From an uncultured Thermoplasmata archaeon (lineage in GTDB: Archaea; Thermoplasmatota; Thermoplasmata; Lutacidiplasmatales; UBA184): 64,000 bases of DNA. Positions 3,201 through 60,782 of the stretch are shown here, in pieces. Under the pieces are notes generated by a model. The model was not told where the DNA came from, made no database searches, and saw only the letters and a list, made by a program, of their open reading frames with translations. How positions within the stretch are numbered: position 1 is the stretch's first letter; every line of letters starts with the position of its first letter. Location: NCBI GenBank assembly GCA_963696985.1, contig CAVOMG010000001.1, positions 455,807-519,806 of the forward strand, read 5' to 3'. Both the position numbers and the translations under genes were made by a program.

Positions 3201-4498
3201 CCCGGCGCTCGACGTGCCGGTCGGGGCCGCGGTCGACTATTTCGCGAACGCCACCGGCCCGGACGGCCCGTACCTGCTCCACTGGACCCTCGGTCCGAAC
3301 GGGTCGGCGTTCGGCTCGCGGACCTCCTCGACGTACCCCTACCTCGTTTGCGCGAGCCCGCCCTCCTGCTCGCTCTCGATCGGGCTCGGCGCCGAGGACG
3401 GGAACCACCGTTGGCTCAATGTGACGTTCCCGCTCGATCCGGCCCAGCTCGGGAACGCGACCGCGCTCGGTCTATCGGTGCGCGCCTCGACGACCCGCGG
3501 GGCGACCCCGTTCGTCTTCCGGGGGATCGCCGACACCGTCGGGATGGGCTCGGTCTCGGTCGCTTGGACGTTCGGCGACGGCAGCACGGGCCCGGGCGAA
3601 TACGGGAACCACACCTACCTGACGCCGGGGAACTACACGGTGACGGCCGTCGCCACGGACCCGTACGGGGACCGCCTCATCCAGGATCTCGCGCTCGTCG
3701 TGACCGGAGTGCAGCGGTACTCGCCGACCGTGGCCGCCAGCTCGAACGTGACGAACGGGCTCGCTCCGCTCTCGGTGGGTTTCCAAGCGGCCGCCTCGGG
3801 TGGGGCGGGCGGACCGTTTGAGTTCACCTGGTCGTTCGGGGACGGGAAGATCGCCGCGGGGGCCTCGGTCTCGCACACCTACGGGAGCGCCGGCGAATTC
3901 ATCGCGAGCGCTACCGCGACCGACCGGCTGGGTGACCCCGCGAGCTTCGCCCTCGCGATCGACGTGTACGGCTCCACCTCGCTGGGACTCTCGGTCGCCG
4001 GCCTCCCGGAGTCGGTCGCCCCGGGAGCTTCGCTTCCGCTCTCGGTCCACGAGTCCGCGGCGTGCGGCGCCCAATCGGTCCCGAACTGCACGAGCGCCCG
4101 GATCCCGTTCCGGACCCTGGTCGAGGCGGCGGGGGTCCCACCGCCCTCGAACGGGTCGATCGCCGGTTCGGGCCATCCGATGGGCGCCTCGGGGTATTCG
4201 AACTTCACCCTGATCGCGCCCAACTCCGCCGGGAAGTACGTCCTCTACCTGTGGGCGAACGGATCCGGTTTCGTGGGGAGCGCCCGCACCCCGTTCACCG
4301 TCCTCAACGGCACCTCGCCGGTCGAGACCCAGCACACGCCCGGGGTCCCGTACCAGGTACTACGCGGGGATCGCGGGCGCCGCGGCGGTCGCGGCCGTCG
4401 GGATCCTGCTCGTCGTGCGGAGGCGGCGCCGGGGGCCGAAGGCCCCCGCTATCCCTTCACGACGCCGAGCGGGCGAAGGCGGGCGACGCGCCGGGTGA
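269..4498 (+). CDS. Secreted, C-terminally anchored S53 (sedolisin/kumamolisin) peptidase with a stalk of PKD/Ig-like domains; two frameshifts (~2545, ~4357)
   Basis: Signal peptide and prodomain; catalytic EEALD, SGDCG and GGSSLSSP; Ca site GWDPVTGLGSP; five (I/Y/W)xFGDG PKD motifs across ORFs 269..2728 and 2563..4545. A shifted frame from 4358 gives YYAGIAGAAAVAAVGILLVVRRRRRG, a TM helix with a basic tail, and stops at 4496-4498. Confidence 0.85.
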
Positions 4499-5906
4499 GC
4501 CCGGCGCCCTCGGCGACCCGGACCACCTCCTCGACGTCCTTGTAGGCGCCGGGGGCTTCCTCGGTGACCCCCTCGCGCGAGGCGGCGCGGACCACGATCC
4601 CCTGCTCCGAGAGCCGTCGGGTGACCTCCTCGTAGCGGAACTTGCGGACCGCGGCGTGGCGGGAGAGAAGTCGACCGGCCCCGTGGCACGAGGAGCCGAA
4701 CGAGCGCTCGAGCGAGGTGGGGAGTCCGACGAGCACGTAGCTCGCCGTGCCCATGTCACCGGGAATGAGGACGGGTTGACCGAAGCGCCGATACCGCTCG
4801 GGGACCTCCTCGCGCCCCGCGGGGAACGCCCGGGTCGCGCCCTTACGGTGGACGAGCACGCGCCGAGGCGCGCCGTCGACGCGGTGCTCTTCGAGCTTCG
4901 CGATGTTGTGGGCGATGTCGTAGATGACCTCGATCCCGGCCGGGTCTGGGTCGAGGACCGAGGTGAACGCTCGCCGGACCCCTTCGGTGATCAGCTGGCG
5001 GTTCGCCCAGGCGAAGTTCGCTCCCGCGGCCATGGCGGCGAGGTAGCGCTTCCCCCGCTCCGAGGCGATCGGCGCGCAGGAGAGCTGCCGATCCACGAGC
5101 GCGACCCCGTCGGCGAGGAGCGCCTGGTCCATCTCGTGGATGAAATCGGTCGCGATCTGGTGGCCGAGGCCGCGCGAACCGGTGTGGAGCATCACGACGA
5201 CGTGGCCTTGCTCTAGGCCGAGCGCCCCGGCGATGGTCGGTTCGAGCAGGGTGTCGACCGATTGGATCTCGAGGAAGTGGTTCCCCGAGCCGAGCGTGCC
5301 GAGCTGTCGGTGGCCGCGCTTCTTCGCGACCTCACTGACCGCGGCCGGATCCGCCCCCGCGAGGGCGCCCTGCTCCTCTTGGAACTCGAGGTCCTCGCGC
5401 CGACCGTGTCCGCGCTCCACGGCCCAGCGGGCGCCGCCGGCGAGCACCTCCTCGATCTCGGAGGGGTTGAGATTGAGCCCACCCTTCGAGCCGACCCCCG
5501 TCGGGACCTCCCGATAGAGCGCGTCGACGAGGGCCCGGAGCTTCCCCACGATCTGTTCCTTGCGGAACGGCGTGCGGAGCAGGCGGACCCCGCAGTTGAT
5601 GTCGTAGCCGATCCCGCCCGGCGAGACGACCCCCTCGTCGAGGTCGAAGGCGGCGACGCCGCCGACCGGGAAGCCGTAGCCGAAGTGGATGTCGGGCATC
5701 GCGTAGGCGCGCTCGCAGATCCCCGGGAGGGTCGCGACGTTCTTCAACTGCTGGAGCGACGGGTCCCCCTGGGCGGCCTCGAGGAGCGGAGCGCTCGTGT
5801 AGAGCCGGCCGGGGACGCGCATCCCCTCCGATTCGGAGCGGGGGATCTCGTAGGTGAACTCGTCGATGCGGACGAGGGTGGGCCCTTCCGGCACGCCGCG
5901 CGCCAT
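4449..5906 (-). CDS. rtcB: RNA-splicing ligase RtcB
   Basis: MPDIHFGYGFPVGG, GYDINCGVRL, LGTLGSGNHFLE, HRKGATRAF and HGAGR motifs; 485 aa. Confidence 0.97.
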   Translation of the reverse strand: MARGVPEGPTLVRIDEFTYEIPRSESEGMRVPGRLYTSAPLLEAAQGDPSLQQLKNVATLPGICERAYAMPDIHFGYGFPVGGVAAFDLDEGVVSPGGIGYDINCGVRLLRTPFRKEQIVGKLRALVDALYREVPTGVGSKGGLNLNPSEIEEVLAGGARWAVERGHGRREDLEFQEEQGALAGADPAAVSEVAKKRGHRQLGTLGSGNHFLEIQSVDTLLEPTIAGALGLEQGHVVVMLHTGSRGLGHQIATDFIHEMDQALLADGVALVDRQLSCAPIASERGKRYLAAMAAGANFAWANRQLITEGVRRAFTSVLDPDPAGIEVIYDIAHNIAKLEEHRVDGAPRRVLVHRKGATRAFPAGREEVPERYRRFGQPVLIPGDMGTASYVLVGLPTSLERSFGSSCHGAGRLLSRHAAVRKFRYEEVTRRLSEQGIVVRAASREGVTEEAPGAYKDVEEVVRVAEGAGLTRRVARLRPLGVVKG

Positions 5907-14496: not shown

Positions 14497-15965
<1,469 letters not shown>

Positions 15966-25900: not shown

Positions 25901-25935
25901 CGGAGCACCTGGGAAACCGAACGGGCCCGGGGGGA

Positions 25936-25970
25936 TGTCCGGGGAGCGCGCCCGGTCTGAGCGCCTCCCG
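25936..25970 (-). other. 35-nt tRNA intron at 59/60 (strict hBHBh')
   Basis: GGGGG-TTCG-AA^C-GGGAG...CTCCC-CGGA-CA^T-CCCCC: a 4-bp central helix with two 3-nt bulges. Confidence 0.92.
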
Positions 25971-26009
25971 TTCGAACCCCCGACCACCTGGTTAAAAGCC
26001 AGATGCTCT

Positions 26010-26040
26010 TTGTAGGGCCGACGGCGGAACCGATCGGCCG
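26010..26040 (-). other. 31-nt tRNA intron at 20/21 (relaxed BHB/BHL)
   Basis: GTAG-GT^C-GGCCGA...TCGGCC-CTAC-AA^A. The central helix is GTAG/CTAC; the outer side is an internal loop (AG opposite AAA) closed by the D-stem. Confidence 0.88.
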
Positions 26041-26120
26041 ACCTACCTGAGCTACGGGCCCGCCCCAGTTCCCGGGCGCTCCGACGAGTGCGCCGTATTT
26101 CAGGTTTCGCACGGAACGGC

Positions 26121-58313: not shown

Positions 58314-58400
58314 TGGCGCTGAGGGGGAGATTTGAACTCCCGGGGCGTTGCCGCCACCAGCTTTCAAGGCTGGCGCCTTTCCGGGCTAGGCTACCTCAGC
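58314..58400 (-). tRNA. tRNA-Ser(UGA), intronless, CCA encoded
   Basis: GCTGAGG/CCTCAGC acceptor stem; CCAGC CTTGAAA GCTGG anticodon arm; long variable arm; T-loop TTCAAAT. Confidence 0.96.
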
Positions 58401-58455
58401 ACCGGGGTCCCGAGGGCGGGCCGCCCTGAAAAATTCGTCGGTCCCGGAGGGGGGA

Positions 58456-58556
58456 TGCAGGCGCCGGGAGTTCCGCCCGCAGGTCAGCCCTGCCGGGGTT
58501 TCGAACCCGGGTGGTCAGCTTGGAAGGCTGACATCCTACCGCTAGATTACACCTGC
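58456..58556 (-). tRNA. tRNA-Gly(UCC) with a 30-nt intron at 59/60
   Basis: Removing 58470-58499 gives 71 nt: GCAGGTG TA ATCT AGCGGTA GGAT G TCAGC CTTCCAA GCTGA CCAC CCGGG TTCGAAT CCCGG CGCCTGC A. Confidence 0.95.
58470..58499 (-). other. 30-nt tRNA intron at 59/60 (strict hBHBh')
   Basis: CCGGG-TTCG-AA^A-CCC..GCAGG GCTGA CCTGC GGG-CGGA-AC^T-CCCGG. Confidence 0.92.
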
Positions 58557-58597: not shown

Positions 58598-59209
58598 CTA
58601 AGAAGCTTTGGCCCGAGGAGGGCGCGGCGGCCGGTCGGCGCCCTTCCCGGGCTCCGGGCGATCGGTCGCGTTGGGAGCGCTCAGCTCGAGCAGGGCGACC
58701 CGCTCGAGGACGAGCCCCTCCCACTGGGCTTCGGGAACGAGCGCGCGCTCGGACTCGGTGATCCCCAGGCGCTCGAGCAGGGCGACGTCCGCGGCCCTCG
58801 GGTAGACCTCGGGGGCCTCGACGAGTCCCCACGCCTCGAGGAGCTCCCCGGGCGCCCGAGCGCGTTCGCCCACCAGGACGAACGCCTCGGTGTCCGGTTG
58901 GACCCCGACCTTGGTGAGCGCCCTCGGGAGCTGGTCGTCCCCGGCGACGAAAAGGAGGAACTCCGCGCCCCGTTCTCGGAGCCGGAGCTGGCCGCGTTCC
59001 CGGGCGCGTCCGAGGTGCGCCCAGGCCGAGAGGAGGTGGCGCGGCCCGAGGACCCCCCGCGCATCGAGGAGGGCGACCAAGGCCTCGCTCGATCGGGACG
59101 ACTCCCGGACCTTCGTCACGAGCTCGGGCGCCGTCGGTCGCCCGGGGGTGCGACGGCGGGCGCCGACGGCCCAGATCGGGAGCCGGTCCTCCGGAGGCAA
59201 CGGAGCCAT
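58598..59209 (-). CDS. cgi121: KEOPS complex subunit Cgi121
   Basis: LLDARGVLGPRHLLSA, EFLLFVAGDDQLPRALTKVGV, LGIT and VLERVALL. Confidence 0.85.
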   Translation of the reverse strand: MAPLPPEDRLPIWAVGARRRTPGRPTAPELVTKVRESSRSSEALVALLDARGVLGPRHLLSAWAHLGRARERGQLRLRERGAEFLLFVAGDDQLPRALTKVGVQPDTEAFVLVGERARAPGELLEAWGLVEAPEVYPRAADVALLERLGITESERALVPEAQWEGLVLERVALLELSAPNATDRPEPGKGADRPPRPPRAKAS

Positions 59210-59864: not shown

Positions 59865-60782
59865 TCAGGCGTCGGGCAGATCGCCCTCGCCGGGGAGTCG
59901 GCGGGCGCCGGTGACCGCGTCGAGCACGACCCGACCCTCCCGACCTTCCCCGTACCAGTACGGCACGTGGACGAGGGCGGGGGTCCCGATCCGAAGGTCC
60001 GCCGGGCCCGGCGCGACCCGGCGGCGCTCGATGATGATCGTCCCGCCGTGCTGCTCCGTGTGGTCGACGCTCACGGTGTGGCGGCGCCGGAGCGCCTCTT
60101 CAGCGGCCGAGATCGCCATCGGCTCGGTGAGGACGGGGGCGAGCTTTGCGGACGGATCGAGCGGATCGGTCGAGATCTCCCGCTCGTCGGCCTCCCACAC
60201 CTCGACACGACCGGAGAGCGCATTGACCGCGACGAAATGCTCGGTCGGGAGCCCGGGACTCCCTTGGGCGGTCGCGATCCGGACCCGGTAGGGCGCGACG
60301 TAGAACGGCACGAGCCTAAGCGTGTATCGGAGGCCGTCGACCCCCGAGATCGCCTCCGCATCGGTCCGTCCGAGCCGGGAGCGGACGGAGAGGTCTCCGC
60401 CCGGAAGGACTTGGGTCGGAGGCTCGAGGGGATGGCTCGGGGGCTCGATCTCGACGGTTTGGGCCGGACCCGGCCCCGGTAGGAGGAGCTCTCCGAGTGC
60501 CGGGCCGAGCGAGGAGGCGTCTAGGATCTCGATCCCCCGGTTCGAGGCGAGCTCCCGGGCGATCGTCCCGGGATCCTCGCTGTAGACGAGGCTCTTGTGG
60601 ACCATGTCGGGGGGGAGTTCCGATTCGACCTCGGAGGGCGAGCGGAGCCCGTCGACCAAGAAGACGACTCGGCGATCCCCACCTCGCACCGCAAGCAAGC
60701 CCGATCGGCGCTCCTCGAGCCGGTAGCCGGCGGCGTCGAGCAACCTCCGAAGGATCGGCGTGTCGGAGGCTACGGGGGCCAT
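59865..60782 (-). CDS. Hypothetical protein (305 aa)
   Basis: Fills the gap between the MBL gene and the cdc48 promoter; normal globular composition; no motif recognised with confidence. Confidence 0.7.
   Translation of the reverse strand: MAPVASDTPILRRLLDAAGYRLEERRSGLLAVRGGDRRVVFLVDGLRSPSEVESELPPDMVHKSLVYSEDPGTIARELASNRGIEILDASSLGPALGELLLPGPGPAQTVEIEPPSHPLEPPTQVLPGGDLSVRSRLGRTDAEAISGVDGLRYTLRLVPFYVAPYRVRIATAQGSPGLPTEHFVAVNALSGRVEVWEADEREISTDPLDPSAKLAPVLTEPMAISAAEEALRRRHTVSVDHTEQHGGTIIIERRRVAPGPADLRIGTPALVHVPYWYGEGREGRVVLDAVTGARRLPGEGDLPDA

Follow-up and report, generated by a model that had tools for sequence, protein, structure and literature searches.

The tRNA-Gly(UCC) gene of an uncultured Thermoplasmata archaeon raises the question of whether a short insert in its T-loop is an intron that the organism can remove, and, if so, how such an intron fits the splicing endonuclease encoded by the same genome. 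The gene lies in a stretch of 64,000 nt (the window, to which coordinates refer unless a genomic position is given) from an assembly of 2.13 Mb and 68% GC in three contigs (G000), which is about 76% complete and has a tRNA set that looks nearly full. With the insert included, the gene occupies 101 nt of the minus strand (58556..58456) and reads GCAGGTG-TA-ATCT-AGCGGTA-GGAT-G-TCAGC-CTTCCAA-GCTGA-CCAC-CCGGG-TTCGAA, then the insert ACCCCGGCAGGGCTGACCTGCGGGCGGAAC, then T-CCCGG-CGCCTGC-A. Exon 1 (58500..58556, minus strand; 57 nt, Sprinzl positions 1-59, assigned from the sequence and from ARAGORN on the spliced form) contains the 5' acceptor strand GCAGGTG, the D-arm, the anticodon arm with anticodon TCC at 58524..58522, and the 5' strand of the T-stem, CCGGG (58510..58506), and ends in TTCGAA (Sprinzl 54-59), that is, TTCG at 58505..58502 followed by A58 and A59 at 58501 and 58500. 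Exon 2 (58456..58469, minus strand) supplies T60 (58469), the T-stem 3' strand CCCGG (58468..58464), the acceptor 3' strand CGCCTGC (58463..58457), and the discriminator A73 (58456), and the 3' CCA is not encoded. The acceptor stem has 7 bp including one G.U pair, and no irregularity is seen in the D-arm, the anticodon arm, or the T-stem. The 7-nt T-loop TTCGAAT is broken after A59 by the 30-nt insert (58499..58470, minus strand), with boundaries at 58500/58499 and 58470/58469, which is exactly the TTCGAA^T interruption named in the original prediction. A blastn search and an anticodon-arm scan found a single copy of the gene in this roughly 76% complete genome, and it is expected to be functional because the assembly holds no second tRNA-Gly(UCC) gene.

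Removal of the 30 nt in silico gives a canonical 71-nt tRNA-Gly(tcc) cloverleaf in ARAGORN, with GGGTTCGAA joined directly to TCCCGGCGCC at the exon junction (TTCGAA/TCCCGG). ARAGORN calls no tRNA in the unspliced 101-mer and in default mode reports only the neighboring tRNA-Ser(UGA) here, while the Rfam tRNA model gives a partial match to the unspliced gene (58491-58551), confined to positions 6-65 with a score of 40 bits. The predicted precursor structure is a strict bulge-helix-bulge (BHB). Its central helix pairs U54-U55-C56-G57 with the intron sequence CGGA at 58475..58472 (U-A, U.G, C-G, G-C). On the 3' strand, the bulge A-C-U60, whose first two bases are the intron bases AC at 58471 and 58470, separates this helix from the 5-bp T-stem CCGGG:CCCGG; on the 5' strand, the bulge A58-A59-A(i1), whose third base is the first intron base (58499), separates it from an intron helix CCC:GGG (58498..58496 with 58478..58476). 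A 2-nt bulge follows this helix and leads to an inner hairpin, GCAGG:CCUGC with the loop GCUGA. Two 3-nt bulges on opposite strands, a 4-bp spacer, and flanking helices of at least 2 bp place the motif in the hBHBh' class, and the perfect BHB originally described is thus borne out, with the caveat that in this Gly copy the helix distal to the 5' bulge has 3 bp (CCC:GGG) before the 2-nt bulge. An alternative register of the motif yields a 4-nt bulge. TTCGAAT is regained in the 59/60 register only, and shifting the boundaries by one base in either direction fails to restore it. The cloverleaf constrained to contain the BHB has a folding energy of -43.4 kcal/mol, 1.7 kcal/mol from the unconstrained minimum of -45.1 kcal/mol. 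A self-splicing group I or group II intron can be ruled out, as the insert is 30 nt long against a ribozyme core of hundreds of nucleotides, and neither the gathering threshold nor a cutoff of E<=5 brought up an Rfam match to either class anywhere in the window. We consider it very probable that the insert is a real BHB intron at position 59/60 of the only tRNA-Gly(UCC) gene, with splicing predicted from the sequence.

Comparison with related genomes gives this prediction an evolutionary setting. In a BLAST search the 101-nt gene was matched over its full length in each of the 24 other species of the genus, and in more distant members of the class the match covered the exons only. Alignment places an insert of 30-34 nt at the identical position in every genus member. 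Eight further intron-bearing orthologs were found in the four other genera of the family (f1), extending the family range to 28-38 nt and bringing the total to 33 genomes that represent all five genera; in a ninth genome tested from these other genera (G301), a tRNA-Gly(UCC) match was not found. Intronless tRNA-Gly(UCC) genes colinear with the spliced product (...GGGTTCGAATCCCGGCGCCTGCA) occur in families f2, f14, f16, f30, f7, f8, f11, and f12. The insert is thus missing from the sister family of the same order (f2, whose genes were missed by BLAST and recovered by a pattern search) and from three further families, and the alignment shows ...GGGTTCRAATCCCGGCRCCTGCA, again without an insert, in four other families. 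The T-loop intron of the original prediction is accordingly confirmed at the level of gene structure, both by the 71-nt cloverleaf and by this colinearity. Since all five genera carry the intron and the relatives show an empty site, the sequences indicate that it was gained at the base of the window's family.

The exons are nearly invariant across the 33 orthologs, and the T-stem, 100% paired, shows no variation at all. In the central helix 97% of cells are paired, with U.G and U-A alternating at two positions. In three orthologs TTCA replaces TTCG, and A57 then lies opposite C or G. Seven of the eight helix pairs of the intron hairpin have changed on both sides, and doubly changed cells number 57, compared with 23.4 +/- 3.5 after shuffling (0 of 500 shuffles as high). 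When the pairing partner is slid by 1-3 columns, pairing amounts to 30-60% of cells versus the 90% observed, and adding 13 paralogous introns leaves the covariation picture unchanged. This pattern indicates that the intron motif is held by selection on its structure while its sequence drifts.

The insert in tRNA-Gly is one of many. A genome-wide search for strict BHBs with in silico splicing, combined with T-loop scans and inspection of weak Infernal and ARAGORN matches, identified exactly 14 tRNA genes cut at 59/60, all with A58-A59 before an intron of 29-35 nt and T60 after it. Five of these have TTCGAA^T and a strict BHB (Gly-UCC, Lys-UUU, Gln-CUG, Asp-GUC, and Arg-UCG). The other nine have TTCAAA^T (Glu-CUC, Leu-UAG, His-GUG, Asn-GUU, Ala-GGC, Arg-UCU, Ser-GCU, Ser-CGA, and Ser-GGA) and carry a mismatch in the central helix, where A57 faces G (C in His). 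The first two T-loop scans were too permissive and returned mostly noise from coding sequence, and ARAGORN run with its intron option (-i) produced many implausible "intron" tRNAs at 68% GC and was excluded from the evidence; the filtered scans agree on 14 genes with a covariance model of the interrupted T-arm (R1: T-stem, TTCRAA, hairpin, CGRR-NN, T, T-stem). Applied to the 2.1-Mb genome, R1 scored the same 14 genes at 40.6-57.7 bits, with the next match at 21.9 bits. The inference that 59/60 introns recur in this genome is therefore upheld, and the count of intron positions that had been suggested as a check gives 14 of about 45 tRNA genes at 59/60, four with D-loop inserts, and four with canonical introns (Tyr, Trp, Leu-UAA, and a CAU tRNA). 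Twenty-five genes are uninterrupted, 12 have a T-loop intron alone, two combine T-loop and D-loop inserts (Lys-UUU and Leu-UAG), and two have a D-loop insert alone (initiator Met and Arg-GCG), for a total of 18 non-canonical introns.

The four D-loop inserts, of about 27-40 nt, lie in the initiator Met, Arg-GCG, Leu-UAG, and Lys-UUU genes, at G000:C1:553869-553973 (+), C1:270520-270628 (+), C1:432528-432671 (+), and window 25923-26061 (-). In a brute-force parse the Leu-UAG insert is a clean strict BHB of 27 nt with all four central-helix pairs and flanking helices of 3 and 7 bp, and the splice sites of the other three are ambiguous. The tRNA-Lys(UUU) gene within the window (25923..26061, minus strand; G000:C1:481729-481867) combines its D-loop insert with a strict 35-nt intron at 59/60, as found by the T-loop scans and R1; it is the other interrupted tRNA to which the original prediction refers when it calls tRNA-Gly the second. 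Splicing out pairs of strict BHBs across the genome did not recover the two-intron Lys and Leu-UAG genes because their D-loop inserts do not all fit the strict filter. The interiors of the 14 T-loop introns are marginally similar at most: the best pair scores 11 compared with 7.9 +/- 1.5 for shuffled sequences (p of about 0.05), and the mean is 0.59 compared with -0.25 +/- 0.46. We see no clear sign of recent transposition among the paralogous introns, and these scores are consistent with introns that are old and drifted, with no clear evidence for recent copying. A separate irregularity was noted at G000:C3:21782-21859 (-), where the tRNA called by ARAGORN has an anticodon of four bases, "cgat" (Infernal, 55.6 bits); its anticodon stem CCCGG/CCGGG encloses an 8-nt loop, CTCGATAA, and it resembles a tRNA-Ile(GAU) whose loop is longer by a single C.

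The tRNA-Gly gene is followed 55 nt downstream by tRNA-Ser(UGA) at 58314..58400 (minus strand; ARAGORN, Rfam 60 bits), which is intronless, as the original description of the locus had it. An AATTTTT run at 58429..58435 (minus strand) lies between the two genes, 20-26 nt past the end of tRNA-Gly and 29-35 nt ahead of tRNA-Ser, and its T-run (58433..58429) thus falls in the tRNA-Ser promoter region as well; judged from sequence and spacing alone, it is likely to act for Gly as an oligo-T terminator and for Ser as a TATA-like element. Inspection of positions -25 to -35 of tRNA-Gly found no AT-rich box, and the nearest TATA-like element is AAAGCTTCTTA, about 43-53 nt upstream of G1 (window about 58599-58609), which as a putative promoter would imply a leader of roughly 20 nt. 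A second close pair of tRNA genes on C1, tRNA-Gln(CUG) at 432388-432493 and tRNA-Leu(UAG) at 432528-432671 (+), 34 nt apart, resembles the Gly/Ser pair except that both members have 59/60 introns and Ser is intact. Other RNA features of the window are a complete archaeal 16S rRNA gene (14498-15965, minus strand; Rfam 1482.7 bits) and a weak match to the C/D-box sRNA family sR-tMet (60442-60506, plus strand; 26.4 bits against a gathering score of 50, E=1.5), which is probably due to chance.

A search with R1 of 301 genomes of the class, in which 18 candidates were scored per genome so that per-genome counts may be too low, shows that the recurrence extends beyond a single genome and is a trait of the whole family. 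At least 5-14 matches per genome were obtained in all 38 listed genomes of the window's family, and at least 0-4 per genome in other families of the Thermoplasmata, with any match at all in at least 121 of the 301 genomes. Outside the family the hosts of 59/60 introns are Leu-UAA, Lys-UUU, Arg-CCG, Ser-UGA, His, and Arg-UCU, some of which (e.g., Ser-UGA and Arg-CCG) are uninterrupted in the source genome. Because the hosts differ outside the family and some are uninterrupted here, the 59/60 site is best described, from these matches, as a class-wide hot spot with turnover that has been greatly expanded in one family. In other families of the class, tRNA-Lys(UUU) appears to carry three inserts (L103, L104, and L116; G130, G155, and G176), one in the D-loop, one directly following the anticodon loop sequence CTTTTAG/A, and one at 59/60; the gene in G130, G155, and G176 thus appears to be a triple-intron tRNA in an alpha'2 lineage. 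The R1 matches of the genome of Candidatus Lutacidiplasma silvani AcS3-62 share their contig coordinates with those of a genome from the window's genus, which places the source organism in that genus group of the Lutacidiplasmatales (once known as TMEG). This agrees with a published description (about 69% GC, about 2.1 Mb), in a paper that makes no mention of introns (PMC9287336).

The enzymes available to process these introns are of an ordinary kind. The genome contains one EndA locus (G000:C1:101146-102207, minus strand), a 353-aa ORF with two PF01974 (tRNA_int_endo) domains and an N-terminal PF02778 domain. Residues 23-335 align with 16-292 of the A. fulgidus alpha'2 EndA (1R0V, 2GJW), and the catalytic Tyr/His/Lys context is found in the C-terminal unit (FKYGADFRAY...HARFLV...VRKEF); the protein is thus predicted to be a two-unit alpha'2 enzyme. 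It is 62% identical to the EndA of Candidatus Lutacidiplasma silvani AcS3-62, as found by a protein search. No second EndA gene or separate beta subunit was found in the genome (about 76% complete), relatives that are 99-100% complete have a single two-unit EndA gene and no further PF01974 match, and intron-poor families likewise have a single EndA gene. No Lys-bearing insert corresponding to a specificity loop (CSL/L1 or ASL/L2) follows the YG motif of the catalytic unit: the site of the crenarchaeal loop reads YGSRIGDRLEVSL, equal in length to the native A. fulgidus YGSEKGDLVTLSL, and the chimera 3P1Y, in which the crenarchaeal loop was grafted into A. fulgidus EndA, carries an extra PLDVEKPRGADFEG. 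The enzyme also has the same length as that of intron-poor sister families, with no family-specific indel. Its N-terminal, structural unit keeps a segment, VRTSPPPVAFSVLPRGGSSTRPRRSTWVQVESE, that is shortened in A. fulgidus EndA and missing from a 289-aa Thermoplasmatales-like EndA (G043); this segment is common to the intron-poor sister families and is therefore unlinked to the intron expansion. The window itself encodes the RNA ligase RtcB (4452..5750, minus strand; G000:C1:460258-461556; PF01139, 1-426 of 426 positions, 568 bits), the enzyme expected to join the exons.

U54-U55-C56-G57 are universally conserved T-loop bases, and the mechanism we propose makes use of them. In the precursor the T-stem would be lengthened by the 4-bp helix of these bases with the 3' segment of the intron, CGGA; a 3-nt bulge would border this helix at each end, one on either strand, and the hairpin of the intron would cap it. 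In each bulge the alpha'2 EndA would cleave between the second and third bases (A59/A and C/U60), and ligation by RtcB would regenerate the 7-nt T-loop UUCGAAU, so that the T-loop/D-loop elbow could form only after exon joining. Cleavage and ligation in vivo, and the order in which pre-tRNA-Gly is processed, are here inferred from the sequence. At 59/60 the exon half of the BHB would be built from the T-stem and UUCR, bases that every tRNA shares, so that a short hairpin ending in CGRR-NN could work in any tRNA, which would explain why this site recurs. In geometry the motif is identical to a canonical 37/38 intron, with a stem formed between the exons, a 3' bulge in which the last two bases of the intron precede the first base of exon 2, a 4-bp helix between the loop and the intron's 3' end, a 5' bulge, an intron hairpin, and cuts after the second bulge base. 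It has been moved by one arm, however, to the T-arm instead of the anticodon arm, and therefore it blocks the T-loop/D-loop elbow and not the anticodon loop.

An intron of this kind is already known, and what is unusual here is its lineage and its density: about 45 genes contain 18 non-canonical introns, of which a single site accounts for 14, alongside a plain alpha'2 enzyme. In older crenarchaeal surveys, BHB introns at 59/60 were reportedly present, and the site is said to be a frequent one. BHB introns in D- and T-loops have been described (PMC3241643), and reviews hold that alpha4 and alpha'2 enzymes accept strict BHBs at the canonical position only (PMC3241643, PMC3239211, PMC5829648), with few introns, at 37/38 only, in the lineages that have them, and with non-canonical introns tied to (alpha-beta)2 and epsilon2 enzymes (PMC4090602, PMC4033280, PMC5829648). 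Across 6970 euryarchaeal tRNA genes, a survey with tRNAscan-SE 2.0 recorded 25 non-canonical introns, including six in three Methanomassiliicoccales genomes and one in five Thermoplasmatales genomes (PMC8450103, Suppl. Table S7). The cultured Thermoplasmata, of the same class and with the same alpha'2-type enzyme as the source organism, thus have 0.2-2 non-canonical introns per genome, as counts without positions, versus 18 here (PMC8450103). The nearest likeness in position is ARMAN-2, in which the same T-loop site is used, the Pro(GGG) intron is a strict hBHBh', and the 59/60 intron of Cys(GCA) was cut in vitro by the epsilon2 enzyme; ARMAN-2, however, has a three-unit epsilon2 EndA with a specificity loop in place of a plain alpha'2 enzyme, and the Cys intron there has 13 nt and a relaxed motif (hBH), compared with 30 nt and a strict motif in this member of the Thermoplasmata (PMC3239211). 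The Crenarchaeota and Thaumarchaeota, and especially the Thermoproteales, likewise have non-canonical BHB introns in many tRNAs per genome, sometimes several per gene (Marck & Grosjean 2003 and Sugahara et al. 2008, in PMC4090602 and PMC3241643; counts in PMC8450103, Table S7), with an (alpha-beta)2 EndA bearing the crenarchaeal loop, many positions, and relaxed motifs (PMC4090602, PMC3241643); the source genome, by contrast, has 14 of 18 non-canonical introns at the single site 59/60. Methanopyrus kandleri, of a lineage traditionally placed in the Euryarchaeota, also combines a non-canonical intron, in pre-tRNA-Glu(UUC), with an EndA that lacks a specificity loop (Kaneta et al. 2018, PMC5829648), but its EndA is an (alpha-beta)2 heterotetramer, its D-arm HBh' intron is relaxed and cut inefficiently, and its genome has only two non-canonical introns (PMC5829648).

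These data bear on three other accounts of the locus. That the standard finders miss the gene and the Rfam match is partial might suggest a dead tRNA gene hit by a 30-bp insertion, or an assembly artifact. Yet this is the only tRNA-Gly(UCC) gene in the assembly, and its insert forms an exact BHB. The 33 independent assemblies all have an insert at this site, a recurrence that excludes an artifact of assembly, and in them the exons are invariant and the insert shows compensatory changes, so that a pseudogene or artifact is barely conceivable. A functional tRNA could instead retain the insert and work with a 37-nt expanded T-loop and an extra hairpin. We regard this as highly unlikely, as the conserved features are those that EndA reads (3-nt bulges, 4-bp spacer, and CGRR with U54-R57), the sequestering of U54-G57 would abolish the T-loop/D-loop elbow, and the same module recurs in 14 different tRNAs while sister lineages have a plain 7-nt loop.

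An intron that is real may still be processed by more than alpha'2 EndA alone, with the help of a second, unrecognized subunit or a broad-specificity cofactor, as in the (alpha-beta)2 and epsilon2 enzymes. That the literature associates non-canonical introns with specificity-loop enzymes of the (alpha-beta)2 and epsilon2 types (PMC5829648, PMC3239211) points in this direction, as do the A57 mismatch in nine of the 14 T-loop introns, the presence of D-loop inserts, and a source genome only about 76% complete. The 99-100% complete relatives, however, encode a single two-unit EndA and no further PF01974 protein, and there is neither an insert at the crenarchaeal specificity-loop site nor an indel relative to the intron-poor sister families; the Gly BHB is also strict, a type that alpha'2 enzymes reportedly accept. 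Such an extra factor is, in our judgment, very improbable. For the Gly BHB processed by alpha'2 EndA there is no mechanistic conflict, since the motif is strict and alpha'2 enzymes are reported to need exactly a 3-4-3 motif (PMC3239211). The accepted rule is really tested by the nine A57-mismatched introns and the D-loop inserts. With a single enzyme of 353 aa and T-loop substrates that are either strict (Gly) or mismatched (His, Glu, and others), the source genome presents a system that is biochemically approachable. To our knowledge, there is no experimental demonstration of alpha'2 cleavage of a T-arm BHB in a full-length precursor.

In conclusion, a gene missed by the common tRNA finders is the sole decoder of GGA codons in this genome, and 13 others are missed with it, so that such genomes look short of essential tRNAs. 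The family also offers a natural test for the co-evolution model of endonuclease architecture and tRNA introns (PMC4090602, PMC5829648). We lean, by a little over even chances, toward the reading that one portable T-loop intron module has multiplied throughout the family containing Ca. Lutacidiplasma (soil Thermoplasmata, formerly TMEG), in at least 5-14 tRNAs per genome and in 14 of about 45 here, along with D-loop inserts, and that the family nevertheless has an ordinary, loop-less alpha'2 EndA; should that enzyme alone process all of these introns, including the nine A57-mismatched ones, the accepted rule linking them to loop-bearing enzymes would fail. If this is true, the spread of introns in these archaea would be limited by the strictness of the motif and not by its position.
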